A stretch of 53,675 bases of DNA, from positions 1-53,675 of the forward strand of contig CALYBB010000050.1 in the NCBI GenBank assembly GCA_944393715.1. The letters run 5' to 3'. Below, piece after piece: positions 13,115 through 46,464 of the stretch. A program made the translations under genes and the position numbers. Each line of letters starts with the position of its first letter. Position 1 is the stretch's first letter. Source of the stretch: an uncultured Alphaproteobacteria bacterium (GTDB lineage: Bacteria > Pseudomonadota > Alphaproteobacteria > RF32 > CAG-239). Below the pieces are notes generated by a model, which worked only from the letters and a program-made list of their open reading frames with translations, was not told where the DNA came from and did not search any database.

Positions 13115-13312
13115 TTAATAATGGGGCGGCGGTGTTTCTTCGGACAGAGGCTTAACAACATCTTTGTCCAGCATATCCGTCAAATATTTATTTATTTCAA
13201 TCAGCCGGCCAATTTCTTTGCCTTGTTCATAAACAATTTTACTCAGCTCATCCAATGCACGTTCATGATTAGCCAAGGCTGTTTCAATCTCAATCAGTCT
13301 TTGTTCATCCAT
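13115..13312 (-). CDS. slyX: SlyX family protein
   Basis: RLIEIETALANHERALDELS coiled coil and C-terminal ETPPPHY. Confidence 0.92.
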   Translation of the reverse strand: MDEQRLIEIETALANHERALDELSKIVYEQGKEIGRLIEINKYLTDMLDKDVVKPLSEETPPPHY

Positions 13313-13447
13313 TTCAGAATCCTTTTTTTGAATCTTTTCCAGCATAAAGCCGTCAAGTTTTTTTGGCAACAAATTTTTTTCAAATTACCGGATTATGCCA
13401 ATTATTAAAAAACGCACATAAAGTGAATAAATCTAACATCAACCACG

Positions 13448-13478
13448 AAAAAAAAGCCGCCTATCGGCAGCTTTTTTT
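13448..13478 (-). terminator. Terminator after tRNA-Pro
   Basis: A8-gccgcc-tatc-ggcagc-T7 hairpin. Confidence 0.75.
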
Positions 13479-13485
13479 GAATAAA

Positions 13486-13562
13486 TGGTCGGATTGACTG
13501 GACTTGAACCAGCGACCTCTTCGTCCCGAACGAAGCGTTCTACCAGGCTGAACTACAATCCG
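13486..13562 (-). tRNA. tRNA-Pro (CGG)
   Basis: Reverse complement CGGATTGTAGTTCAGCCTGGTAGAACGCTTCGTTCGGGACGAAGAGGTCGCTGGTTCAAGTCCAGTCAATCCGACCA. Confidence 0.96.
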
Positions 13563-13754
13563 CTATTTTACAACGCCTGTTAGTAATAACATATTTTTTT
13601 GAGAACTCAAGCAAAAATTTAAAAAAAATAATAAAAACTTGTTCACTCTTAAAAATAACCAGAGCAATAAAAGAAAAAATATTTTTTTATTAATAATGTT
13701 CTAACTTTTTTTCGTTAAATTAAAAAATCAGGAATAAACTTTTTTTGAGGAAGT

Positions 13755-15071
13755 ATGTCAGAATATTCAACCGTTGAACTTTTATTGTTTCAACTTTTTT
13801 TGATCTTTTTAAATGCCGTTTTTGCCGGAGCGGAAATTGCTGTCATCTCAGTCAATAACAGCAAGCTCAAAAGGTTGGCCGATCAAGGAGACCGCCGTGC
13901 CAAGCGGTTATTGTCGCTGACAGTGCAACCGGCCAAATTTTTGGCAACCATTCAGGTTGGTGTTACGCTGGCCGGTTTTTTAGGCAGTGCTTTTGCTGCC
14001 GACAATTTTTCCGATAAAGTTACGGACTGGCTCATCTCTTGCGGTATCCCTCTGGCTCCTGCCAAGCTTGATGTGCTGGCAGTTATCGGCATCACGCTCA
14101 TATTATCCTATATTACGCTGATTCTCGGTGAGATTGTCCCCAAACGCGTTGCCATGAAAAATCCCGAGAAAATATCTTTGGCCGTATCATGGTTTCTTTA
14201 TGCAATAGCCGCAATTTCAACCCCGTTGATATGGTTTTTAACCGTTTCAACCAATGCAGTGTTGCGGCTTATCGGTATCAATCCCAATGCCGAAAATCGT
14301 AAAGTTACGGAAGAGGAAGTCCGCATAATGATTGACGCCTGCAGTGAGGGCGGTGGTATTGATGATATTGAAAAAAAGATGCTCAACAATGTGTTTGAGT
14401 TTGATGACAAACGGGTGCGTGATGTCATGACATACCGTTTGGATGTTGCCTTTTTGAACGCTGATGATTCGAAGCAAAAGTGGGAAAAAATAATGGTCAA
14501 ATCCCGCTATTCCGTCTATCCATTTTATCGCAGTACCAGAGATAATGTTATCGGCGTTATCACAATTAAAGATTATTTCAAGTACAAGCAATTTTCAGAA
14601 AATGAAATTATCAAAAAGGCAGTTAAACCGGCGCAGATAACGCTTGATACGCTGCATATTGACGAACTGTTTGTTAATATGCAAAAAAGCCGTAATCACT
14701 TTGCCGTTGTGGTGGATGAATACGGCAGCATCACCGGAATTGTTACCATGAAAGATCTTTTGGAAGAACTGGTTGGCGAACTCAGTAATGACACGGTTAT
14801 TCCGCCGGAAGGGCCGATGGTCGAAAAAATAGATGACCATACATGGCTGATTAAAGGGGCGGCCTCGCTCAAAGAGGTCTCTGAGGCATTAAAAATAAAA
14901 TTTCCGCCAAACGATTGCACGACTTTTGCCGGATGGCTGTTTGCACTGATGGACAACATTCCGCAAAACAAAAAAAATGTCAAACTACAATATGGCCGGC
15001 TGAAAATAAAAATACCGCAGATCAAATCTCGACGCATAGAAGAAGCAGTCGTCCGCTTGATGGACAACTAA
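13755..15071 (+). CDS. HlyC/CorC (CNNM) family transporter: DUF21, CBS pair and CorC domain
   Basis: FAGAEIAVIS, LATIQVGVT, GEIVPKR and VVDEYGSITGIVTMKDLLEELVG. Confidence 0.93.
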   Translation: MSEYSTVELLLFQLFLIFLNAVFAGAEIAVISVNNSKLKRLADQGDRRAKRLLSLTVQPAKFLATIQVGVTLAGFLGSAFAADNFSDKVTDWLISCGIPLAPAKLDVLAVIGITLILSYITLILGEIVPKRVAMKNPEKISLAVSWFLYAIAAISTPLIWFLTVSTNAVLRLIGINPNAENRKVTEEEVRIMIDACSEGGGIDDIEKKMLNNVFEFDDKRVRDVMTYRLDVAFLNADDSKQKWEKIMVKSRYSVYPFYRSTRDNVIGVITIKDYFKYKQFSENEIIKKAVKPAQITLDTLHIDELFVNMQKSRNHFAVVVDEYGSITGIVTMKDLLEELVGELSNDTVIPPEGPMVEKIDDHTWLIKGAASLKEVSEALKIKFPPNDCTTFAGWLFALMDNIPQNKKNVKLQYGRLKIKIPQIKSRRIEEAVVRLMDN

Positions 15072-33693: not shown

Positions 33694-33724
33694 AAAAGCC
33701 ATCGTTCAAACGGTGGCTTTTTTT
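33694..33724 (+). terminator. Terminator after the RND operon
   Basis: aaaagccatcg-ttcaaa-cggtggcttttttt. Confidence 0.85.
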
Positions 33725-33837
33725 GTCAAATTTAGCTAAGAAACATTGCAAAACTTGAGGAATCTTATTGCAAATAAAGGGATAATAATTATTATATAGG
33801 CAAAATACCTTTTTAAAACGCGGGATAAATAGGCATA

Positions 33838-36800
33838 ATGTCTCGAATTAAAATAATATTTTATGCAGCTTTAGCTCTAATTGTCGGTAGTCATGAAGGT
33901 TATGGTGCCGTCCGCCCGATTACTGAGGCCGGAAACGGTTTTGCCGTGTTCGGGACGGCCGTTCCGCAGCGTCAGAGCAGCGAAGGCTGTGGGGATATAG
34001 CGGCCTGCACGACAAGCTGTAGCCTGAGCGATAATGCCACAGGCTACCAATGCGAAGAGGCAGGACAATGTTGCGACAATGGTCAAGTCGTTCCGGCTTA
34101 TAAATGTCCGGCAGACTTCCGATACGACGCGTCGGTAGATTATCCAAAAGAAGCTGATTTCCAAATCTGTACGGGCACTAATACCGGCGGCTACGACGGC
34201 CGTTGGGCCACTAAGGATCCGGAGGCGTGTTCCAATTGGACGGACAATGGGACATATCTGACTAAATTATCTACAAATTCTAGCTGCGATGGGAACTGGG
34301 GAGAACACTATGTGTGTATTTACAGTGGCCAAACCAGAGATTTTTGCGTATTGAACCGAACAATCGGACTACAAAAGTGTCCGGACAATAATAATTACAC
34401 AACCACCCCCCAACAATGTTCAGGGGGCTACAACTCGGCGCTGTGTTACGTTGACTGCGGAAACGGTATGTTTTGTGAGGGCTATACCTGCGATCTGGGC
34501 AATATACCAAATTGCAATGATCTGATTAAAGAAAAGCGGGAGCAGGGTATTCTATACCCCACCAGCTTGGGCGATTCCGGCAGCAGTTTGAGACCTTATG
34601 CTTGTTTGGATCAGGGGGTTGAAAAATTTATCGGCTTCGGCATGGACAAAGACGGCAATGAATGCCACGGCGAATACCCGATCGAAGATGAGTATACATG
34701 TGAGGAAGGCAACGGAAAAAACGCAAACACCTGTAAAGTTGATGGAGGCACTGATCGTTATCGTTGTGGTTGCAATTATGAGGGAGAGCCCCAAACATAC
34801 AAAACGCTGCAAGAACACTGCGGAAACAATGCCACCTGTCTGCAGACCAATTACGGAACCGGTACGTTGTGCACAGCCGATAAAGATGCAGACGGCAATG
34901 CTTTGTACAAATATGAGACTTTTGAATCCGAAATAGAATTGTGTTCTGTTTTGGAGCAGACATCTATCCTAACAGATCTGGACGGCGGGACGTGCGAACC
35001 AGTTAAAGATGATGTTTACGAAGATATAACCTATCCTTTATTAAAAGTTCAATGTCGCATCCTGCATGAAGATACTTACGAAACGGAAATCCTTGATAAA
35101 TGTCAGGGCTGCCTCGCGTTGCGGGATCTTACCGAAGCCGGCGGAACATGTTCTCCCGGAACAGCTCTTGTTTGCCCGTATCAAGCGGCAGGCTCATCTC
35201 CGGTGGCGGCAGGATGCCAGTGTCCGGCTGATGACGGCTGGATGACCATTGCGCAATGGTGCGAAGCTAACGGCAGCGATATAGATAATTGCCAATCAAT
35301 CATTGCAGGAAAAGGCGAAGAATGCCAAATTGCTTTGTTTGACGGGAGTTATACGGACGGAGGCTATTATAAAGAATTTGAGTGCGGCGAAGGCTATCAG
35401 ACATTGGCAGAATTTTGCGCAGCCAATCCGGATATTTCCGAAAATCACAACTGTGAAACAGACTATATTGGTCTGGGAGCCGTTTGCAAAGCAGAAAGCC
35501 CCGATGATGAAAAAGGCTGGAAGTACAGAGGCTTTGGCTTGTCCTGTTCGGCGCTGCCGGAGGAATCCGTCATGAGCGACACGGAAAATTGCCTTCTGGA
35601 AGGAGAAGAAGAGGCCTATTACGAAGCCTGTTATGAAAAAGTTGAAGGAGAGCTTCCGGTTGAAAAATATGTCTGTAAATGTCCGCCGAGCTACGGAACA
35701 GAGTGCGAAAATGATTACGAAATTCGCGGTGGTACAAAGTGTGTTTTCGATTATGATGCCGCAGGCAGCTCAATAACCAAATATGCCCAATGCTATCTCG
35801 TCTGCGGTCATGAATATGCTTCGGCCTCTTCGGCGACGGCTTATGGATGTCCGGAAATTTTCGGCGATTATGTGTCTTCGATTCGCGGCGGAACTTCAAA
35901 TCCTGAGATGTGTGCCGTCTCGGACAGTCGAGAGTTGAGTTATATCTGCGGTTGCCCTGATAATTTCAAGACAATTGATGAATGGTGCGAAAGCAATTAT
36001 AAAGACGAAGGTTTGGATTCTGCGTCCGAGTGTATAAGCAGTTATAACGGTATCGGTACATCCTGTAGCAGGGACATCAAAACCGATGCAGATGGAAAAC
36101 CGGTTGAAGTCCTGACCAAATATGCCGGCTATGCCCGTTATTGCCCGACAGATAGGCCTCTTTACTACGGCGAAGAGGACTGTACCTATGCAAGGGGTGA
36201 GTACGCCTACGGCTGTTTGGACAAAGACAATGTTGAAAGAGTCGTATGCCAATGCCCGCTGACATGGTACGCGGTAGACGGCACCGTTCAGGAAGGTGAT
36301 ATTTGCACGACACAGGGCCTCGGCGATCGCAATTTTGAGGCAGAGCCTTCAGGAAATTATTGCGAATTAGATGGCACCGAAGGCATAAAATACGAAGAAT
36401 GCACGGCAAAATGCCAGCCGTTGTTGGAAGAAGTAGCTCTGCCGTCGTCCTACATTTATTTGGATGCATCGACCTCAACGCCGACGCAGAATATGTGTGC
36501 CAAAGAGCTGGGCAACGGTGCCGTTTTGGGATACGGCAATCAGGCTTATTGTTCTCAAAACAATACAAAGATGTATCCTTGTTATTGTCCGGCAGACTTT
36601 AGAGAATGCCTCAAAGAAGAAAACCAAGAGGCAGCAAAAGATGCAACATCCTGCAGTATCAACGGCGTAACATATTGGAGTGAGTGTGTTCCGATTGCCT
36701 GCGAAACACCGGGACCAAATTTAGCGGTGGTTGATATATCAACGGATGTTGAAGCAGTTTTTGGCGCAGGGGCAGAATTCCGAATTTGCTCGTCCGGAGA

Positions 36801-39800
36801 TAAGGTCATGAAGCAGGTCAGCTGCGATACGTCAGTCTATACCGACACCTGTGAATATCCGTATGAAGCGCCTAAAGACGGTAGTTGGTGCAGATACAAT
36901 ACCTCCGGTTCTATGGAAAGCGGCTCCCAATATTATCAGGCCGGCGCCTGTCAGGTCAAAAAAGTCCTTGGTGCCTGTGGTCAAAACATCATCGAAGGAG
37001 AAACAACACGGACGGATTATGCCATCTTTGTTGCTCCATCCGAGAGTGAATGTTCTGCTTTATATGGCCCCGGCGTTTCAGCTCAGCTGTGTGAGTATGG
37101 GGCAGATCAGGGCTACAAGCGTGCCTACAACTGCTACTACGATCCTGATGAATTTAAATACACAACGGCCAACTGTGCTGTTCGGCATAATTTAGGCGGC
37201 GACTATGTCATCGTCAACGGCCAAAAAAGATGGCGTGAATGCAATTGTTCAAGCGCCTACCAGCATCATAAATTTAATTGCGGCGGTTTGCTGTCCGGCA
37301 ACACCTGCCAGCAGGAAATTACTCGGTCGTTGATTGCCTCTGATCCAACGCTTGACGAAAGCATGCTGGGTCAGACACTGCCTTTTTATCCTTATTGCGA
37401 ATGTTCGGCCGATTATACCGAAGTTTGTGATGAAGACGGCAGCGGGCGCTATAAAGGGGTCGGGCAAGCCTGCAACGGTAAGTACAAGTCCTGCGAATGC
37501 GTTCCCGACGAATTACCGTTAAATTGGGCGGATAATTATTATGGCTGCCCTGGAGGCCGAAAACCAACCGGTGTTTGGAAAGACAATGGGTGTGGGCGTA
37601 AATATTACCAGTGTTCGGTTATTGAATGCAGCTGGGAATACACTGAAATGTGCAATGCGCCTCAGATTCCTGTCGGGCAGCCGTGTCAGGATAATCAGGG
37701 AAATATCGGCGGTTACAAAGCTTGCGCTTGTCCGTCGGAATATAAGCTTTGCCCCGAAGGACAGGTCGGACAGGGCGAGCCATGCAATCTGAAAGGTGTC
37801 TCTTATTATAAAAGCTGCAAAGAAGAAGAAACCTGCAGTTCCACGGTGAACAATACTTGTTCTGGCCCATTGCAGATAGGTATTAATCCCTGTGTTCGCG
37901 ACGATATAACTTATTATGAGCGCTGTGTTTGTGCCAACGGCTATTCGGAAGTTTGCGGCGACGGAGAGGTCGGGGTCGGAAATTATTGCGAGCTTGACGG
38001 TGTCAAATACTACAAAGAATGTGCCAAACCGGAGAAAAATCTGTGCACCCCAGGTCATGTAACGGCTTGTGGAACCAACCAAGAAAGCTATTCGCCGTGT
38101 ACCGAAATTAGCGAGGACGGTCGGCCAGTCGTCAAATATTTGTGCCGTTGTCCGGGAAATTGGAAGTCGTGCGATTCCGGCAGTGGAGAAAAGTGTGTTC
38201 AGAAGAATTCGGATGGTTCAGAAACAACATATTGGAGCGAATGTAACGCACAGGCAGATACTTGTTCCGAATATCAGGAGCAAACTTATCAGGTGTGTAC
38301 TTCTGCCCAAATCGGCGACGGAGGCAGCTGCGCCTCAACAATTGAAAACAGTGACGGGTCATCGGAAACGGTAATTAAATATGCAAGCTGTCAGGATACC
38401 ACCAACTGCCTGACAAACGGTTTCAAATATTCTTGTTCGGGTTATGATCCCGCCACACTTGGCGAATTTTGTGTTGATGCCAATGGCAACCGGCTGTATA
38501 AGGAATGTCCGTGTCCATCCGGTTATACGACTTGTAACGGCATAAATACCTCAAAAGGAAAGCGCTGCACGCCGCTTTTAGCAGATGGCAGTTTTGGCCC
38601 GACGGTTTATGCTTCCTGTGAGTGTGATCAATCAAAATATAAATACACTTGTCAAGCAGAAGAAAGCGGCAATGTCGGCATCATACCGCCAGATACACAA
38701 GATTATTGCGAAATTACCGAAAAAGTAACCCAAACCAGTACCGATCCCGAAACCGGCGCAACAGTCAGCTCTACTGAAGAAAAGAAGGTGCGGTATTATG
38801 CATCATGCAAATGCGACAGCGATTACCAATACACTTGCCAAAACAGCAGCAAGGGAGAAAGAGTGCCTGACGATTATAAAAATGACTATTGCGAAATTAA
38901 TTCAACAAAATTTTATAAAGGATGCGATTGCTCCGCTGAGTATAACATAACGGCGGAAGAATGTGCTTTGAATAGTGGGCAAAAAGCCAATTCCGAAGGC
39001 GGATCATGCACAATCAGAGGACTGGTTCCGGAAATCTCTGCCGAAGGGGAAAAAACGTATAAAGCCAAGGAGACTTTATACCAAGGGTGTATTTGCAAAC
39101 CAAGTTATTCGCTGACTTGTACCGGCAACTTTTATGATCAGAGCGACATAGAGGCCTGCACGCTTAACACAAATAGGCCGCTGTATCCACGCTGCCAATG
39201 CTCTGCCGAAGCCCAGAAAAAATGTATAGCCAGCGGCAAAAATCAAGGTGTTATTCCGGACAAGAACACCGTTTGTACGGAAATGATAGCAGACAATTCC
39301 GGCGGCTATACGACCGAAGACAAATACATGGCCTGTACTTGCAAGGATGAATACACGCTGTTTTGTGTCGGTGACGACAAATGGGATCAAAGCAATGAAG
39401 ATTATTGCGATACCGGTGAAGAAGGTGCGGATCGTACATACCGAAAATGCGCCTGCAATAGGCAAATCTACGATAATATGGTCGATATGGGAGGAACGGA
39501 CGCAAAAACTTATTGTGAGAGCCTGGGGATGATCGTCTCCGAAAAAGTCGCGAGTAATGAACAATATTGCACAGAGTATGAAAACTCCCGCGGGACACTT
39601 ATATATCGCTATCGTCCGAACCGAAATTTATGTTGTTCCGGCAGCAATACAGAAGGCTATACTCAACTGGATCCTTCTCCGTACGAAAACCTCACGGAGC
39701 TGATAAAAAGCTATTCGCAGCAAGGGCTTGAGGCAAAAATAAAGAACCTGTGCGGTCATGAATATAATGCGGTCATCATTTTTGATTGCAACGGCTACCC

Positions 39801-39993
39801 GTATTACAAATGCAGCAATACCGATGTCCAGTCCGAAGCCTCTGCCGGAACAAACTGGTATACACAGGAGCAGTGCAGGGCGCAAGGCAGCGCGTGTTCT
39901 GTTTCGGGGATAGCCGAGACAATAAGCAGTTCTTGGACGCAGTCGGCTCAGGTTTATCCAAATTGCAGTTGTTCTGCCGGTGGCGGCAGCTGA
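33838..39993 (+). CDS. Giant secreted cysteine-rich repeat protein (2051 aa)
   Basis: N-terminal signal peptide; roughly 8-10% Cys by eye; acidic and Tyr/Gly-rich; many CxC..Y..C..GxG..C..YxxC modules. Confidence 0.92.
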   Translation: MSRIKIIFYAALALIVGSHEGYGAVRPITEAGNGFAVFGTAVPQRQSSEGCGDIAACTTSCSLSDNATGYQCEEAGQCCDNGQVVPAYKCPADFRYDASVDYPKEADFQICTGTNTGGYDGRWATKDPEACSNWTDNGTYLTKLSTNSSCDGNWGEHYVCIYSGQTRDFCVLNRTIGLQKCPDNNNYTTTPQQCSGGYNSALCYVDCGNGMFCEGYTCDLGNIPNCNDLIKEKREQGILYPTSLGDSGSSLRPYACLDQGVEKFIGFGMDKDGNECHGEYPIEDEYTCEEGNGKNANTCKVDGGTDRYRCGCNYEGEPQTYKTLQEHCGNNATCLQTNYGTGTLCTADKDADGNALYKYETFESEIELCSVLEQTSILTDLDGGTCEPVKDDVYEDITYPLLKVQCRILHEDTYETEILDKCQGCLALRDLTEAGGTCSPGTALVCPYQAAGSSPVAAGCQCPADDGWMTIAQWCEANGSDIDNCQSIIAGKGEECQIALFDGSYTDGGYYKEFECGEGYQTLAEFCAANPDISENHNCETDYIGLGAVCKAESPDDEKGWKYRGFGLSCSALPEESVMSDTENCLLEGEEEAYYEACYEKVEGELPVEKYVCKCPPSYGTECENDYEIRGGTKCVFDYDAAGSSITKYAQCYLVCGHEYASASSATAYGCPEIFGDYVSSIRGGTSNPEMCAVSDSRELSYICGCPDNFKTIDEWCESNYKDEGLDSASECISSYNGIGTSCSRDIKTDADGKPVEVLTKYAGYARYCPTDRPLYYGEEDCTYARGEYAYGCLDKDNVERVVCQCPLTWYAVDGTVQEGDICTTQGLGDRNFEAEPSGNYCELDGTEGIKYEECTAKCQPLLEEVALPSSYIYLDASTSTPTQNMCAKELGNGAVLGYGNQAYCSQNNTKMYPCYCPADFRECLKEENQEAAKDATSCSINGVTYWSECVPIACETPGPNLAVVDISTDVEAVFGAGAEFRICSSGDKVMKQVSCDTSVYTDTCEYPYEAPKDGSWCRYNTSGSMESGSQYYQAGACQVKKVLGACGQNIIEGETTRTDYAIFVAPSESECSALYGPGVSAQLCEYGADQGYKRAYNCYYDPDEFKYTTANCAVRHNLGGDYVIVNGQKRWRECNCSSAYQHHKFNCGGLLSGNTCQQEITRSLIASDPTLDESMLGQTLPFYPYCECSADYTEVCDEDGSGRYKGVGQACNGKYKSCECVPDELPLNWADNYYGCPGGRKPTGVWKDNGCGRKYYQCSVIECSWEYTEMCNAPQIPVGQPCQDNQGNIGGYKACACPSEYKLCPEGQVGQGEPCNLKGVSYYKSCKEEETCSSTVNNTCSGPLQIGINPCVRDDITYYERCVCANGYSEVCGDGEVGVGNYCELDGVKYYKECAKPEKNLCTPGHVTACGTNQESYSPCTEISEDGRPVVKYLCRCPGNWKSCDSGSGEKCVQKNSDGSETTYWSECNAQADTCSEYQEQTYQVCTSAQIGDGGSCASTIENSDGSSETVIKYASCQDTTNCLTNGFKYSCSGYDPATLGEFCVDANGNRLYKECPCPSGYTTCNGINTSKGKRCTPLLADGSFGPTVYASCECDQSKYKYTCQAEESGNVGIIPPDTQDYCEITEKVTQTSTDPETGATVSSTEEKKVRYYASCKCDSDYQYTCQNSSKGERVPDDYKNDYCEINSTKFYKGCDCSAEYNITAEECALNSGQKANSEGGSCTIRGLVPEISAEGEKTYKAKETLYQGCICKPSYSLTCTGNFYDQSDIEACTLNTNRPLYPRCQCSAEAQKKCIASGKNQGVIPDKNTVCTEMIADNSGGYTTEDKYMACTCKDEYTLFCVGDDKWDQSNEDYCDTGEEGADRTYRKCACNRQIYDNMVDMGGTDAKTYCESLGMIVSEKVASNEQYCTEYENSRGTLIYRYRPNRNLCCSGSNTEGYTQLDPSPYENLTELIKSYSQQGLEAKIKNLCGHEYNAVIIFDCNGYPYYKCSNTDVQSEASAGTNWYTQEQCRAQGSACSVSGIAETISSSWTQSAQVYPNCSCSAGGGS

Positions 39994-40105: not shown

Positions 40106-43102
40106 TTACCTGCCGTTATTGTCCTGTTTGCTGTTAGGTTGTTGCCGAACCTGTTGCGGCTGAAGCTGATGGGTAACACGTTTGGACTGGTGTTTCTGGT
40201 CAATGACTCGTCCGAGAATTTGCCCGCGCAAAAGTTGTTTCTGTTCCGGTTTCAAATTATCGGCATGTTCCAAATGAAACAGGTTTTCCGCGCCTTGTTT
40301 GGCGTATTTAGGCAACAGCTTATAAGTGTCGTCTTTGCGCAGCTCTTCAGCCCCTTTGTCTTTATATTTATTGGCCAAATTAATGATTCCTGAAACCTTA
40401 AGGGATGATTTTGAATTTGCGTTAGCCAGTTCTATATTTTCATCTTTTAAGGTTTTCTCAATATAACGGTCGTTTTCAGCTTTCTGAGATTTATCCTGTT
40501 GAGTTTGTTTAGCCTCTTTTGCTTCTTTTCGGGCATCATCTTGCAAAGCCTTAGCAGCCGAAATCTCCAAGAGCGTGATGGTATCACTGTTCTTTTCTCC
40601 AAAAGTATTGACAATTTCTTTCGTGAAATTTAAATAGCCTTCGCCGCTTTTATCAAATTCGCCGGATTGAACTTTCTCAATGACTTTTAGTTTGGCCAAC
40701 TGTTCTGCCTCATCCTTAGAGTCTGTAACGGCACGGATCATCACCTTTTGAATGTTCTTTTCCTCATTTTCTTTATCTTTCGCAGGATTTGGTTTTCCTT
40801 CTTCAGGGCGGCCGTTCGACTGTTCTTTTTCGGATGCCTTATTTTCAATATTGAGCTTTTCGGTATCTTTTAGACGATTCTCATTCTCTTTGCGGTTAGA
40901 GTCCGCATCCTTCCTCTCTTCGCTTTTTTTATCTTCCGCAGCATTGGGAGTGTTTTCATTCTTTGCAGCATTTGGTTTTTCTTCTTCAGTTCGGCCGTTT
41001 GGCTGTTCTTTTTCGGATGCATTATTTTCAGTATTGAGCTTTTCGGCATCTTTCAAACGGTTCTCCACCTCTTCGCGGTTGGCGACAGCGATCTTTTGCT
41101 TGTTCAGTTCGGCCAAAAAGGCTTGTTGAGTCTTTTCAGAAAAACCGTTTTCCAAATTAACTTCTGTAATACCGTCTTTACCCAATTGCTCCACCAAAGC
41201 GCTGATTTCTTCAGCGGTCGGTTCACGCGTTTCGCCGTTTTGGTCTTGAGTAACGAGGTCATAACGAGATTTATCCTCAGCAATGTATAAATCCATCTTG
41301 TCGCCATTTGGGTAAGTTTGGCGTATATCGGGTTGAGCATTATCTTCGTTGTTATAATCAGGCACTTCATTTCCGACATTCGCCTGCACCTCGTTAACCG
41401 GTGTTTGTTCATTAACCGCCTTTTGTTCGTTGGCCGGTGTGTCTTTGAGCTCTTCTTCAGAATTTTCCTTTGTTCCTTCTCTGTTTTTAGGCAGCAATTT
41501 TTCTTTAATGGATTCAATTTCGCCGTCAGAAATACCGCGAGATTTCAACAAATTGTCAATATTCGGAAAACCCAACTCTTTGGCAACCTGTTGCAAGACA
41601 GCCTCATGAGTGATAATTTCTCTGTTATGTATTTGGTTATCCGACATCTGAGGATCATCCGTATCCGGCACCTGAGAAGCATTTTTATCCGGCATCTGAG
41701 TCTCAACCGTTTGCAAAACCCGCAACAGAGGATTTTTAGCGCATTCCTCATTATATCTTTGCTTCAGCAGAGCAACTCTGTTGTCAAGATTGACAGTAAA
41801 ACTGTCAAAATTTTTCGTTGCATTTTCAATATCATCATTGCCCAGAGAGCCAATCATCTCCTTTTTTTGTTCAGCCAAAGAATTTTCACGATTTTGGCAC
41901 GATTGCTGAATCTGCTTCAACATATTTTGATACATTGCACGAGCATCGGCTGTAGGCCGGTCAGAGATATATTCATTTTGTGCTTTATTGATCTTTTCCG
42001 ACAAACCACGACTGTAAGACTGCAGCTTTGTAATATTGGCATGATCCATCAAACGATTGGTCAGCTTTTCGGAAGATCCGAGATAAAGCGTTTGATAATA
42101 AGCAAGTTTAGCATTCGTGCCCAACTTTTTAAAAGCGTTTTTGCTCAGCCATTTATAAGATGCATTTTCACTTTTAAGATCAAGAACCTTATCAAGCCTT
42201 ATGGCTATCCGATCAAAACTTTTTCCTTTATAATCAACAATTTTTTTACGCAGCTTATAGTATCCGGTCTTTCGTCCGAGCCAGCTCCCATTAAGCTCTT
42301 TTTCTCCATAATAGGCCGCCGGATCAATGTCTCTTCTGGCTTTTTCCAATTTGCGCCGACGATTAAATTTCCATTTTGAGGTCTTATCTTTTTCTTCCTT
42401 CAAATTATCAATAAATCCGGCATAAGGATTTTTGCCATCTTCATAACCGGTAAAACGATTTGCAATAGCGGCTTTTTGTGCTTCTCGCAGCATGTAGTCG
42501 GCACTGTCCTTGGATTTTCCTTTTTGATATCTGTCCAACGCATCAGTCAATCCGAAATCATTTATTGTCGTAGGAGCGGCACCGGTAGGAGCCATGGAAT
42601 TTATCCTTCTATCCACGGCAAAATCGTTGAGAATCTTCTTAGCAATAGTTTCTTGAGGTTGAGCCTTTTTTACTTGATCATCCAACAAATTTTTCAGTTT
42701 GCCTAAGCTCTTTTCATCCGGAAAGACCAAGTTTCCTTCAGCCAGTTGCTCTATATAAAAATCAACATGAGCTTGAGACGAAAATTCGCCGTTCCTGAAT
42801 TCATTGCCGACAAACTCACGACGTTCGTTGTTGCTGAACATCTCATCAAGCCTGCTGCTCCCATCGTTCACGACAATTCTGTCTTCTCCGTCAGTGTTCT
42901 GAGGCTTTATGGGCTCACTTGCAGGAGCCTCGGAGGTTGTCATAGACTTAATTTTCTCTTCAAATCTTCTTTTGAGATCCTCGCGGTCAAAGGAAATCTT
43001 TCCTTCATCACTGGATAAATCATTCAAAGCATTATTAAGTCTTTCTACCGTCGCATCAGGGTTGCTTAAAATGCTTTCGTATTCTGAAAGATCCAAAGCC
43101 AT
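40106..43102 (-). CDS. Large hydrophilic coiled-coil/low-complexity protein (998 aa), candidate secreted effector
   Basis: K/E/N/Q-rich; no signal peptide or TM; internal repeat; Q-rich C-terminus ending NNGR; GGGGAG RBS. Confidence 0.85.
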   Translation of the reverse strand: MALDLSEYESILSNPDATVERLNNALNDLSSDEGKISFDREDLKRRFEEKIKSMTTSEAPASEPIKPQNTDGEDRIVVNDGSSRLDEMFSNNERREFVGNEFRNGEFSSQAHVDFYIEQLAEGNLVFPDEKSLGKLKNLLDDQVKKAQPQETIAKKILNDFAVDRRINSMAPTGAAPTTINDFGLTDALDRYQKGKSKDSADYMLREAQKAAIANRFTGYEDGKNPYAGFIDNLKEEKDKTSKWKFNRRRKLEKARRDIDPAAYYGEKELNGSWLGRKTGYYKLRKKIVDYKGKSFDRIAIRLDKVLDLKSENASYKWLSKNAFKKLGTNAKLAYYQTLYLGSSEKLTNRLMDHANITKLQSYSRGLSEKINKAQNEYISDRPTADARAMYQNMLKQIQQSCQNRENSLAEQKKEMIGSLGNDDIENATKNFDSFTVNLDNRVALLKQRYNEECAKNPLLRVLQTVETQMPDKNASQVPDTDDPQMSDNQIHNREIITHEAVLQQVAKELGFPNIDNLLKSRGISDGEIESIKEKLLPKNREGTKENSEEELKDTPANEQKAVNEQTPVNEVQANVGNEVPDYNNEDNAQPDIRQTYPNGDKMDLYIAEDKSRYDLVTQDQNGETREPTAEEISALVEQLGKDGITEVNLENGFSEKTQQAFLAELNKQKIAVANREEVENRLKDAEKLNTENNASEKEQPNGRTEEEKPNAAKNENTPNAAEDKKSEERKDADSNRKENENRLKDTEKLNIENKASEKEQSNGRPEEGKPNPAKDKENEEKNIQKVMIRAVTDSKDEAEQLAKLKVIEKVQSGEFDKSGEGYLNFTKEIVNTFGEKNSDTITLLEISAAKALQDDARKEAKEAKQTQQDKSQKAENDRYIEKTLKDENIELANANSKSSLKVSGIINLANKYKDKGAEELRKDDTYKLLPKYAKQGAENLFHLEHADNLKPEQKQLLRGQILGRVIDQKHQSKRVTHQLQPQQVRQQPNSKQDNNGR
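40776..41065 (-). repeat. Two diverged ~105-nt direct repeats, 183 nt apart, within the 998-aa gene
   Basis: ENRLKDAEKLNTENNASEKEQPNGRTEEEKPNAAK versus ENRLKDTEKLNIENKASEKEQSNGRPEEGKPNPAK. Confidence 0.9.
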
Positions 43103-43300: not shown

Positions 43301-44182
43301 ATGAGAAAATTCGTTTACATAGCAGTTATAGCGCTGGGATGTATATTCCAGACGGATTCTTTTGCTGTGCAGTATGGCGATTTATATGGCGTTGAATGGT
43401 GCCCGTGCAATCCGGATGATCAATATGACCAAAACGGTTCTGTCGTTTTGGGCAAGACGGTAATGTGTCCTTGTGATTCAATGTACGAAGGTTACGATCG
43501 GACTATGGAAAAAGACCTCCGCAAAGTGCAGCATAAAGTTAAGCAAAAGGTAGAGCAGGCCAAAAATTTTAAATATTATGTCGGTTTTGATTACAACAAA
43601 TCGCAGATGGAAACATCGGCGGAAAAAATAGGTTTCAACAATCTGGTGTTTTCCCCGACCAACGGCTTTGAAGTCCCTTCGGATACTATTTTTGATGATC
43701 AAGATAATATTGGTATCGTAATCGGAACCCGTCCGCACAACAATTTTGGTATTGAGCTGTTCTACAACCGCACGTACAATGACAATACCGTTACCCAAAT
43801 TGACAACACCTCTCTCAACAATACCGACTACCATATGGTAAATACCTATATCACCAAATATCAGGCCTTTGGTCTGGATCTTTTGGGTTATCTTCCGGTA
43901 ACGGAATACTTTGATTTTATTGCTTTTGTCGGCTTGGGACAATATAACTTTGATACCGAAGCGCGTTTCGAAACGCATTATCTGGAAAGCGGCAACGCCG
44001 CACTTGACCAAGCGGAGTTTGATCTAAGCGAAGACAAAATTGCTTGGCGCGTCGGTTTAGGCTTTCAGTTCAATATTGCTCGAGGACTGGTTTTGCGCAG
44101 CATGTATCGTTATATCAGCTTAAATACCGATGCGATAGACTATCTGCAAGAGTTTTCGGTCGGGTTGAGGTTCTTGTTTTAG
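43301..44182 (+). CDS. Outer-membrane beta-barrel protein (OmpA-like 8-stranded family) with N-terminal CPC motifs
   Basis: Signal peptide; amphipathic strands; C-terminal GLRFLF BAM-type signal. Confidence 0.88.
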   Translation: MRKFVYIAVIALGCIFQTDSFAVQYGDLYGVEWCPCNPDDQYDQNGSVVLGKTVMCPCDSMYEGYDRTMEKDLRKVQHKVKQKVEQAKNFKYYVGFDYNKSQMETSAEKIGFNNLVFSPTNGFEVPSDTIFDDQDNIGIVIGTRPHNNFGIELFYNRTYNDNTVTQIDNTSLNNTDYHMVNTYITKYQAFGLDLLGYLPVTEYFDFIAFVGLGQYNFDTEARFETHYLESGNAALDQAEFDLSEDKIAWRVGLGFQFNIARGLVLRSMYRYISLNTDAIDYLQEFSVGLRFLF

Positions 44183-45972: not shown

Positions 45973-46464
45973 TTATTTGACATCATTGAGGAGAATTTTT
46001 TCATCGTCAATAACCTCTATTCTCTCAGGCTGTGATGCCACGGAATGATAAGGGGCCTTTTCGTAGCTGACCTGAGAATAGGTCTTCGGCTCGTAAACCG
46101 TTTTATAGGTTGTCTTTTTATAGACGATTTCTACTGGTTCGCGAGTTTCGGTAATTTTTGCCTCACACGGATTGCAAGTCCCGCAGGCATTGCAGCTGCC
46201 GCATGCCGGCTGGGCACAGACAACCGGAACCGGCTGACAAGCAGGGCAGGGACGTGACTCGCGGTAACGAATCGGACGTGCAACCGGTCGGGGTGTTCTC
46301 TTATAAACATAGCGATAGCAAGTTTTGCCGTCAAAATAATCGCAATCCGTCGCAGGAGCAGCAGCAACAGTACGATAAGTCGTTACGGGAGCCTCTTCTT
46401 CACATTCAAAACAGGCACAGGCCGAAACAATGGCGGACAAAGCGATAACGAACAGTTTCTTCAT
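45973..46464 (-). CDS. Cysteine-rich lipoprotein
   Basis: MKKLFVIALSAIVSAC lipobox; CPACQPVPVVCAQPACGSCNACGTCNPC segment. Confidence 0.85.
   Translation of the reverse strand: MKKLFVIALSAIVSACACFECEEEAPVTTYRTVAAAPATDCDYFDGKTCYRYVYKRTPRPVARPIRYRESRPCPACQPVPVVCAQPACGSCNACGTCNPCEAKITETREPVEIVYKKTTYKTVYEPKTYSQVSYEKAPYHSVASQPERIEVIDDEKILLNDVK

Follow-up and report, generated by a model that had tools for sequence, protein, structure and literature searches.

A cysteine-rich giant protein and its lineage-restricted module family in small-genome gut Alphaproteobacteria

What kind of protein is a 2051-residue product in which cysteine (Cys) returns every dozen residues or so, and where would a small gut bacterium use it? 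The gene in question stands on a 53,675-nucleotide stretch (positions 1 to 53,675 of contig CALYBB010000050.1, GenBank assembly GCA_944393715.1, here called the window) from an uncultured alphaproteobacterium of the GTDB lineage RF32; CAG-239, whose genome comprises 1,399,383 bases in 50 contigs, is 96.4% complete and has 44.4% G+C. An earlier note, made from the letters alone, had called the open reading frame (ORF) at 33838..39993 (+), a call that is borne out, and had read it as a secreted protein of dozens of eukaryote-like disulfide modules, perhaps a new adhesin, surface-coat or filament family. We now report that the module is new and lineage-restricted and that the giant protein built from it (P0001) represents a new family. 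Our preferred account, held with a little less than even confidence, is a disulfide-stapled, envelope-attached fibre or stalk of adhesin- or coat-like function, probably held by an outer-membrane barrel; the disulfides, the place outside the outer membrane, the binding and the contact with the barrel are the parts that we infer.

Four-cysteine modules, their predicted hairpins and their export

Cysteine makes up 8.39% of the giant, as compared to 1.33% in a crude set of 1306 ORFs from its own genome, of which the giant is the longest. It amounts to 7–11 residues per 100-residue block over nearly the whole length, and the first 860 residues hold 69, exactly the figure that had been counted by hand. 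The cysteines recur in fours: successive CxC motifs are 4, 8, 12 or 16 cysteines apart, and numbering the cysteines modulo 4 puts 20 of the 21 CxC motifs in one register, giving 42 quartets, a periodicity far beyond chance. From a 24-module alignment (A4) and from 993 domain hits, 851 of them unique, collected across 82 proteins, we obtained the module consensus C-x-C-[P]-x2-Y-x3-C-x6-12-G-x2-C-x-L-...-[DN]-G-x2-[KY]-Y-x2-C, to which the earlier note had come close. A hidden Markov model (HMM) of the module recognises 22–24 copies in the giant, 16 of them within residues 1187–1871, and the remaining quartets are longer or more diverged variants; a variant in the N-terminal half carries an inserted 'T-x2-E-W-C' stretch. 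The earlier count of dozens of modules thus stands for the 42 quartets and needs qualifying for HMM-recognised copies, while the highest density does lie where it had been placed, at about 37400–39450. The absence of obvious repeats at the DNA level is likewise confirmed (just one 11-nt tandem of 2.1 copies and imperfect direct matches of 20–32 nt), in agreement with the suggestion that the repeats are probably old.

AlphaFold2 models cover the C-terminal half of the giant (residues 1135–2051, 917 aa; mean predicted local distance difference test score, pLDDT, 80.0; predicted template-modelling score, pTM, 0.41) and its core (residues 1187–1469, 283 aa; mean pLDDT 85.9, pTM 0.64). The smaller model is all-beta, with 21 strand elements and long two-stranded hairpins. 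In the larger one the module array is mostly beta-strand, and an alpha/beta domain, predicted with confidence, makes up the last 180 residues, its helices lying at model positions 818–838, 861–868 and 876–881 (within protein residues 1952–2015). Each modelled unit closes in a long two-stranded hairpin (e.g. residues 1346–1354/1357–1365), the first strand bearing G-x-x-C and the second bearing (K)YY-x-x-C and continuing into the next CxC. Direct-coupling analysis of the 851 unique modules returns the same antiparallel hairpin (pairs 26–35, 25–33, 21–37 and 19–38) and brings a lead-in strand into touch with the first hairpin strand (pairs 2–26 and 4–21); direct couplings between Cys columns were disregarded as artefacts of near-invariant columns. 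In the models the module array is an elongated string of beta-hairpins.

Joint losses of cysteines among homologues suggest how those of one unit may pair. Of 35 ungapped homologues, 17 have lost both C1933 and C1984 while keeping C1932 and C1972; C1298 and C1316 are lost together in 2 homologues, and the third Cys of a unit is lost along with the first Cys of the next in 7 cases. Such paired loss favours two separate disulfides per unit, most likely C2–C4 and C3–C1' (C1' belonging to the next unit), in which case the structural unit would start at the second Cys of one CxC motif and end at the first Cys of the following motif, leaving a linker of one residue. Loss patterns that hint at C2–C3 or C3–C4 conflict with this pairing; they come from the poorly aligned N-terminal third, where many single-Cys losses are probably alignment shifts. 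Of the thiol-oxidation proteins for which the earlier note had wanted a check, the genome does encode DsbA-like proteins (a CSFC site is present in one of them) as well as a membrane protein of DsbD type.

By its sequence signals the giant is a real, Sec-exported protein, with a signal peptide that is typical by eye (Table 1). An N-terminal hydrophobic segment, mostly ending (Y/F)A·A, is present in 44 of 44 giant homologues, which argues for export. No second membrane segment was found in P0001 (other 19-residue windows reach a Kyte–Doolittle value of at most 1.32), and reading of the sequence shows no lipobox and no Cys at the mature end. Pfam and NCBIfam searches, hydropathy and sequence reading thereby agree with the earlier description of a signal peptide followed by no barrel, RTX repeat, lipobox or transmembrane anchor. 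The mature protein starts with a conserved motif, which in loose form occurs in 43 of 45 giants and in strict form in 20 of 45, as compared to 1 of the 1306 own ORFs. It recurs in module proteins of unrelated architecture (P0048, P0054, P0056, P0059 and a 387-aa protein of the own genome); its regular expression has no match in P0052, P0053 and P0060.

The gene appears to be its own transcription unit. A hairpin with a U-run directly follows acrB (folding energy −15.8 kcal/mol, z −5.56, with an equal fold in 0 of 200 shuffles) and sets the giant gene apart from the operon of TetR, membrane fusion protein and AcrB, and a promoter-like site sits in the 153-bp AT-rich spacer 5' of the gene. Several runs labelled as chicken gut, one of which may be where the window came from, carry a nearly identical giant gene (14 differences over 8501 bases in run X1). 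Within the species, then, the gene is stable from one such run to another.

A new family confined to one lineage

Neither Pfam nor NCBIfam yields a family for the giant at E≤1, Pfam yields nothing relevant for the module array (EGF, laminin, Sushi, TNFR, Kazal) at E≤10, and the giant's short relatives have no match in either collection. A whole-family profile finds nothing among PDB sequences at E≤10. Foldseek against PDB gives no match at E≤0.001, and Foldseek and VIA-align together give no credible fold match to the AlphaFold2 models, VIA-align being weak by design on the 917-residue multi-domain model. The weak top Foldseek rows (CR1, NEL, Delta-like 1, an Entamoeba lectin, Argos, uromodulin and TNFR) have E≥2e-3, probability ≤0.12 and template-modelling (TM) score ≤0.09, the best being CR1 (E 2.1e-3, probability 0.12, TM 0.07). 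For rows that contain EGF-bearing proteins, E is ≥0.017, probability ≤0.08 and TM ≤0.17; the VIA-align rows contain none. Literature searches at the level of titles and abstracts brought up no relevant description of such a cysteine-rich giant protein. The proposal of a new family is thus upheld against Pfam, NCBIfam, PDB sequences and known folds, and no well-characterised Pfam domain spans the modules.

At E≤1e-3 the module profile matches 21 of 1.84 billion representatives, one of which (P0057) is spurious, and the named cluster members are labelled 'MAG: Alphaproteobacteria bacterium' (MAG, metagenome-assembled genome). Among whole genomes, 49 of the 199 from the window's family contain the module, as compared to 0 of 400 others from the class; within the order sample it occurs in 10 of 22 genera, including 27 of 42 genomes of genus g1. 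A first sample had the giant in 25 of 36 genus genomes and in 0 of 24 genomes of other families, and in the larger set it was matched in 39 of 55 other genus genomes, where absence means not found with these queries, so that diverged Cys-rich genes may remain. A word-based search retrieved 44 other giant relatives of 1396–2699 aa, 33–54% identical and none with a Pfam domain; the few that are named are again 'MAG: ... Alphaproteobacteria bacterium', with one partial sequence labelled Lachnospiraceae. The same kind of search for short relatives retrieved 2. In the plasmid and phage collections, tblastn gave no match at E≤1e-5. We read the module as having been invented within a single family of gut Alphaproteobacteria with small genomes. 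As a side observation, a genome scored as lacking the giant (G005) has a partial ORF (L030:7792-9174, minus strand) with 12.8% Cys and module-like motifs (…KHYSECNC…YPYTSC…) that the queries missed (E 0.07 against P0001).

Inheritance of the giant looks vertical but very fast. Compared with the relative G035, acrB has a nonsynonymous divergence (dN) of 0.009 and a synonymous divergence (dS) of 0.64, whereas for the giant dN is 0.363, about 40 times that of its neighbour, and synonymous sites are saturated. Across the genus the pilus secretin is 88–66% identical where the giant is 57–40%, and the identity ranks of the two correlate (Spearman 0.85, n=16 related, non-independent genomes), which points to vertical descent. 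Cysteines are exempt from the divergence: Cys columns are 92.9% identical and other columns 33.2% (42 homologues). By 50-residue bins of the homologue alignment, both ends are hypervariable (residues 51–500 and 1700–2051, non-Cys identity 0.12–0.25), and the conserved core between them is kept even in the distant relative P0048. The giant lies directly 3' of acrB in five close relatives; in genomes without it, flagellar-like genes come after acrB, and one such genome (G005, above) has the different, even more Cys-rich partial ORF.

Shorter relatives suggest what the array is for. Homology between P0048 (1692 aa) and the giant starts at the conserved core (E 9e-75), and P0048 has ∼20 modules followed at its end by a weak match to DUF1566/Lcl_C. 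P0056 and P0059 combine a signal peptide and a similar mature N terminus with few modules and weak Lcl_C matches, and P0053 and P0054 have the same build, with Lcl_C-like 'GxW(Y/F)(L/V)P' motifs behind the modules that were recognised only by eye. Four paralogues in a genome of the sister genus g31 (G173; L031–L034) share ∼290 N-terminal residues, comprising signal peptide, conserved domain and three modules, and then differ: one has nothing more, one has a single DUF1566-like stretch, one has two and one has an unrelated domain, these DUF1566-like motifs having been read by eye and not from a Pfam scan. P0001 itself ends in its own variable domain in place of an Lcl_C-like head, a domain that occurs three times in the relative P0051. 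Because modules precede such varied heads, the array behaves as a stalk for them, and we suggest that exported proteins throughout this family use it as a stalk or spacer.

The number of paralogues in the own genome had also been raised as a check. There phmmer retrieves the giant alone and the module HMM no other protein. A second module-bearing protein, of 387 aa and 7.5% Cys, is nonetheless encoded at C16:19356-20519 (L027:857-2020); its mature form starts AVTPITEY and ends ...CLAWWF, and it is linked to the family through the N-terminal part of P0059 (E 1e-10), being otherwise found only by uncorrected BLAST. Three further proteins of this genome, of 259–285 aa (C43:9426-10205, C31:99-956 and C31:15462-16307), give weak DUF1566/Lcl_C-like matches of 24.8–27.5 bits; each has 9–11 Cys without recognisable modules, and two are near-identical over their first 40-odd residues. 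In G173, further copies of the family lie at contig ends, as expected for multicopy genes.

A co-occurring barrel and the place of the proposed fibre

The window also encodes an outer-membrane beta-barrel protein with an unusual N-terminal extension (Table 1), in which W33 C34 P35 C36 ... C56 P57 C58 are invariant in 21 of 21 aligned orthologues. An orthologue is present in 40 of 40 giant-positive genus genomes, as compared to 4 of 16 giant-negative ones. The two genes are 0.6–4 kb apart in the closest relatives, and in a more distant clade they are on different contigs, including in a 9-contig assembly. Within the order sample the extension occurs in 34 of 42 genomes of g1 and in the single genomes of g32 and g43, which are exactly the outside genomes with module hits in giant ORFs (2789 and 2528 aa); it occurs in 0 of 157 genomes of 19 other genera, including ones that have small module proteins only. 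When both are mapped on a tree of 54 genomes built from the secretin, the giant shows 11 changes of state and the barrel 9; across the 8 independent pairs whose members differ in the giant, the barrel follows in 5.4 on average and never goes the opposite way (median p 0.0625). There is thus good circumstantial evidence for what would be a functional link between giant and barrel. A complex prediction (giant residues 24–130 and 1180–1300 with the mature barrel, run without controls) scored 0.00; it gives no answer and weighs neither way.

The preferred reading can now be put together. About 42 small units would form a Sec-exported, elongated fibre, each unit being a beta-hairpin with a short lead-in strand, stapled by four invariant cysteines, most likely as two disulfides, and joined to its neighbour through the one-residue spacer of CxC. 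In shorter relatives the module stalk would carry variable C-terminal domains, some of them weakly DUF1566/Lcl_C-like. The conserved middle (∼1051–1600) would be flanked by hypervariable ends that face a changing outside (host, phage, other microbes), and the co-occurring barrel, with its invariant CPC...CPC extension, probably holds or handles the fibre. Of the earlier suggestion, then, the new family stands, and the adhesin, coat or filament role is backed indirectly, by lectin-like heads in relatives, fast evolution with cysteines kept and elongated hairpin models.

Several observations weigh against this fibre. The Lcl_C (PF07603) matches of P0048, P0056 and P0059 score 28–31.5 bits, below the Pfam cut-off of 34.9, and Pfam finds no Lcl_C or other binding domain in P0001. 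No DsbB, for which the earlier note had also wanted a check, and no VKOR turned up in any of the 56 genus genomes, although both searches responded to controls, so that the normal route of DsbA re-oxidation is missing; and even Cys numbers outnumber odd ones among exported proteins (59 versus 43, by a crude signal-peptide guess) only as a trend (p 0.14). The threshold for barrel presence (best E≤1e-46) was chosen after the data had been seen, four genomes carry the barrel without the giant, and the phylogenetically controlled co-occurrence is only suggestive. Barrels with an even number of strands usually have a periplasmic N terminus; with that topology the CPC extension would face the periplasm, which favours a periplasmic giant. 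No route for the giant across the outer membrane was identified, the sole secretin being part of a type IVb pilus cluster. For transcription there is a weak hint, three short contigs that fall within the giant gene in one RNA library (in run X20, gene parts without RNA contigs carry no meaning).

The most probable alternative, which we nevertheless consider unlikely, is that the giant stays in the periplasm, tethered to a periplasm-facing CPC extension as a structural or spacing element of the envelope. A Sec signal with no recognisable outer-membrane export device, the N-terminal position of the Cys extension in the co-occurring barrel, and a conserved middle that would suit a conserved partner are all consistent with it. 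The ∼40-fold dN relative to acrB and the hypervariable ends would be unusual for housekeeping periplasmic proteins, however, and the lectin-like heads of the relatives are typical of extracellular binding proteins. The giant is also missing from 16 of 56 genus genomes and hence appears dispensable.

In a less probable alternative, the type IVb pilus machinery would export the giant as a colonisation factor, either soluble or associated with the pilus. Secretins pass folded proteins, and the check for secretion systems that the earlier note had proposed turned up, on a different contig of the genome (C39:3097-12315 and 13126-14404; L026), a complete R64/TCP-like pilus cluster of type IVb, with a TcpQ-like protein, secretin, PilO-like protein, ATPase, platform protein and two bundlin/PilS pilins, followed by two TrbC/VirB2-type pilin genes; its secretin is present in 54 of 56 genus genomes. 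By analogy with TcpF and CofJ, the mature N terminus of the giant would dock on a minor pilin, and differently built module proteins do share a short motif there; the peptide AVRPITEAGNGF may be named, beside the pilins of the cluster, as a candidate pilin-binding peptide. In the TCP and CFA/III systems, the flexible mature N terminus of TcpF and CofJ is the secretion signal that binds the minor pilin, and these signals depend on aromatic residues (as described in PMC9565799). The motif AVxPIxET has no aromatic residue, however, and its regular expression missed three module proteins, as said above; the cluster is present with or without the giant, so that co-occurrence is uninformative.

Two further alternatives we hold to be very improbable. 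The four invariant cysteines of each unit might bind Zn or Fe, in a metal-stabilised or metal-storing exported protein, which would sit well with the lack of DsbB and VKOR and with an anoxic habitat (itself deduced from gut-labelled runs). Cys4 zinc-ribbon-like modules, however, have two CxxC knuckles and need all their ligands, whereas the giant's spacing is C-x-C...C...C, without such knuckles; the loss of the 1933+1984 pair in 17 homologues, with the other pair kept, would wreck a Cys4 site but not a two-disulfide unit, and DsbA-like (CSFC) and DsbD-type proteins are present. An array of protease-inhibitor-like or decoy domains, Kazal-like in style and shielding the cell from gut proteases, is equally improbable. 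In its favour, the runs labelled as chicken gut point to a habitat rich in proteases, four-Cys domains are known from Kazal-like inhibitors of several domains (LEKTI), and the module profile touches no PDB sequences other than Kazal-type SPI-1 (C-P-x2-Y-x3-C-G...C, E 1 and 1.5). Against it, an E of 1 is not significant, Pfam Kazal gives no match even at E≤10, the modelled modules are hairpins without the Kazal helix, and no Kazal structure is among the fold-search rows.

If the disulfide-stapled fibre and its barrel do belong together, the two could be a previously unknown two-part envelope system: a new two-disulfide beta-hairpin fibre and a small, dedicated outer-membrane barrel whose WCPC...MCPC extension caps the fibre or is disulfide-linked to it, made by a lineage of the anoxic gut that has neither DsbB nor VKOR and would therefore need a so far unrecognised way of folding proteins oxidatively. 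We regard this fuller scheme as unlikely.

Other genes near the giant may be noted in their own right. At 40106-43102 on the minus strand, convergent with the giant, lies the gene of a 998-aa Lys/Glu-rich low-complexity protein without signal peptide or Pfam domain; its dN against G035 is 0.365, a pace like the giant's, and tblastn with it as query comes up empty at the loci of G002 and G003, which have the barrel gene directly 3' of the giant. A 163-aa ORF at 45973-46464 (minus strand) has 8.0% Cys and a lipoprotein-like start (…SAIVSAC·ACFEC…); G020 (L028:10085-10723) has a similar lipoprotein-like start (…LLVPACACFQSDE) in an ORF that adjoins one resembling a DNA methylase by eye.

Table 1. 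Features of the window that bear on the giant protein, in window coordinates (a dot marks the end of the signal peptide)
Feature	Coordinates	Strand	Remarks
Terminator-like hairpin and U-run, directly 3' of acrB	33694..33728	+	12-bp stem; folding analysis
Promoter-like site TTGCAA-16-TATTAT	33768..33795	+	Consensus scan, 9/12 matches; pattern match only
Giant gene	33838..39993	+	ATG start; 2051 aa, 172 Cys, 42 four-Cys quartets
Signal peptide, residues 1-23	33838..33906	+	MSRIK, hydrophobic core, G-Y-G·A; read by eye
Mature-protein start AVRPITEA	33907..33930	+	Conserved; family motif [A/G/R]-[V/I]-x-x-I-x-[E/D]-T
Hypervariable N-terminal region, residues 51-500	33988..35337	+	Non-Cys identity 0.12-0.20, Cys 0.63-0.93
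Conserved core, residues 1051-1600	36988..38637	+	Non-Cys identity 0.47-0.79, Cys 0.99-1.00
Dense array, residues 1187-1871	37396..39450	+	16 HMM-recognised modules; units of 31-63 aa, CxC-joined
Variable C-terminal alpha/beta domain (predicted), residues 1871-2051	39448..39990	+	AlphaFold2 pLDDT mostly 84-96; non-Cys identity ~0.2
Outer-membrane beta-barrel protein, 293 aa	43301..44182	+	Ends ...RFLF; PF13505 (OMP_b-brl) 6.6e-10; candidate anchor or partner
N-terminal extension of the barrel, YGDLYxVEWCPCNP...GSVVxGKTVMCPCDxxYxGY	43367..43585	+	Two CPC, then Lys-rich helix-like stretch
Paralogous second barrel, 287 aa	44201..45064	+	Ends ...RYHF; E 3.7e-24, 33% identity to the first; without Cys extension

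Significance and comparison with known systems

These uncultured small-genome Alphaproteobacteria are regular members of animal guts, and the giant takes up 6.2 kb of a 1.4-Mb genome. Its module is described in no database, and no solved fold matches the confident models of it. It defines a lineage-specific exported toolkit of giants and multigene families of 300–700-aa proteins with swappable C-termini, an obvious place to seek the adhesins, coat proteins or phage receptors of the group. The module would merit a new Pfam entry. The family raises the questions of how a protein with up to 86 disulfides would be folded where DsbB and VKOR are lacking, how the giant reaches or stays at the outer membrane, and what the co-inherited four-Cys barrel does.

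The earlier likening to EGF and laminin repeats and protist surface antigens is apt as style, but homology is not supported: no profile matches, and the units have four cysteines, not the six of EGF or the eight of laminin EGF repeats per 30–60-aa unit. The eukaryotic disulfide-rich ectodomain arrays (SCR of CR1, EGF of Notch ligands and uromodulin, TNFR, the Entamoeba Gal/GalNAc lectin) are likewise tandem beta-rich units of 30–60 residues with invariant cysteines and very short linkers, and they form elongated extracellular rods; the giant differs from them in its four cysteines per unit with a junctional CxC and in its confinement to one bacterial family. The likeness reads as one of style, not of homology. 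Among four-Cys units, Sushi (CCP, SCR) domains have ∼60 aa, pairing 1–3/2–4 and a conserved Trp, whereas the giant's units are mostly 31–63 aa, lack a conserved Trp and have no Pfam match; in the frame C2..C1' a Sushi-like 1–3/2–4 pairing is hinted at by the paired Cys losses alone. Kazal domains share with the module the local motif C-P-x2-Y-x3-C-G...C, but have six cysteines (1–5, 2–4, 3–6) and a central helix that the modelled modules lack.

Among bacterial proteins, the giant adhesins (RTX/Bap-type, autotransporters, Ig-like repeats) are comparable in that they, too, tend to be the largest gene, repetitive, exported, fast-evolving and dispensable. The giant has no type I secretion signal, RTX repeat, barrel, or Ig-like or cadherin-like repeat, and it does not fall among autotransporter, two-partner or RTX proteins, the barrel encoded nearby being OMP_b-brl (PF13505) and not a TpsB or autotransporter barrel. 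Giant repetitive bacterial adhesins are typically Cys-poor, in contrast to the 8.4% Cys seen here. The closest parallel in build may be Lcl of Legionella, a secretin-exported 'lollipop' adhesin in which a stalk bears a DUF1566 head of C-type-lectin-like fold (described in PMC11162425). Relatives of the giant similarly pair a signal peptide and a long repetitive stalk with a C-terminal DUF1566/Lcl_C-like head, a head that P0001 lacks; the stalk of Lcl is a collagen triple helix, whereas here it would be a string of four-Cys hairpins.

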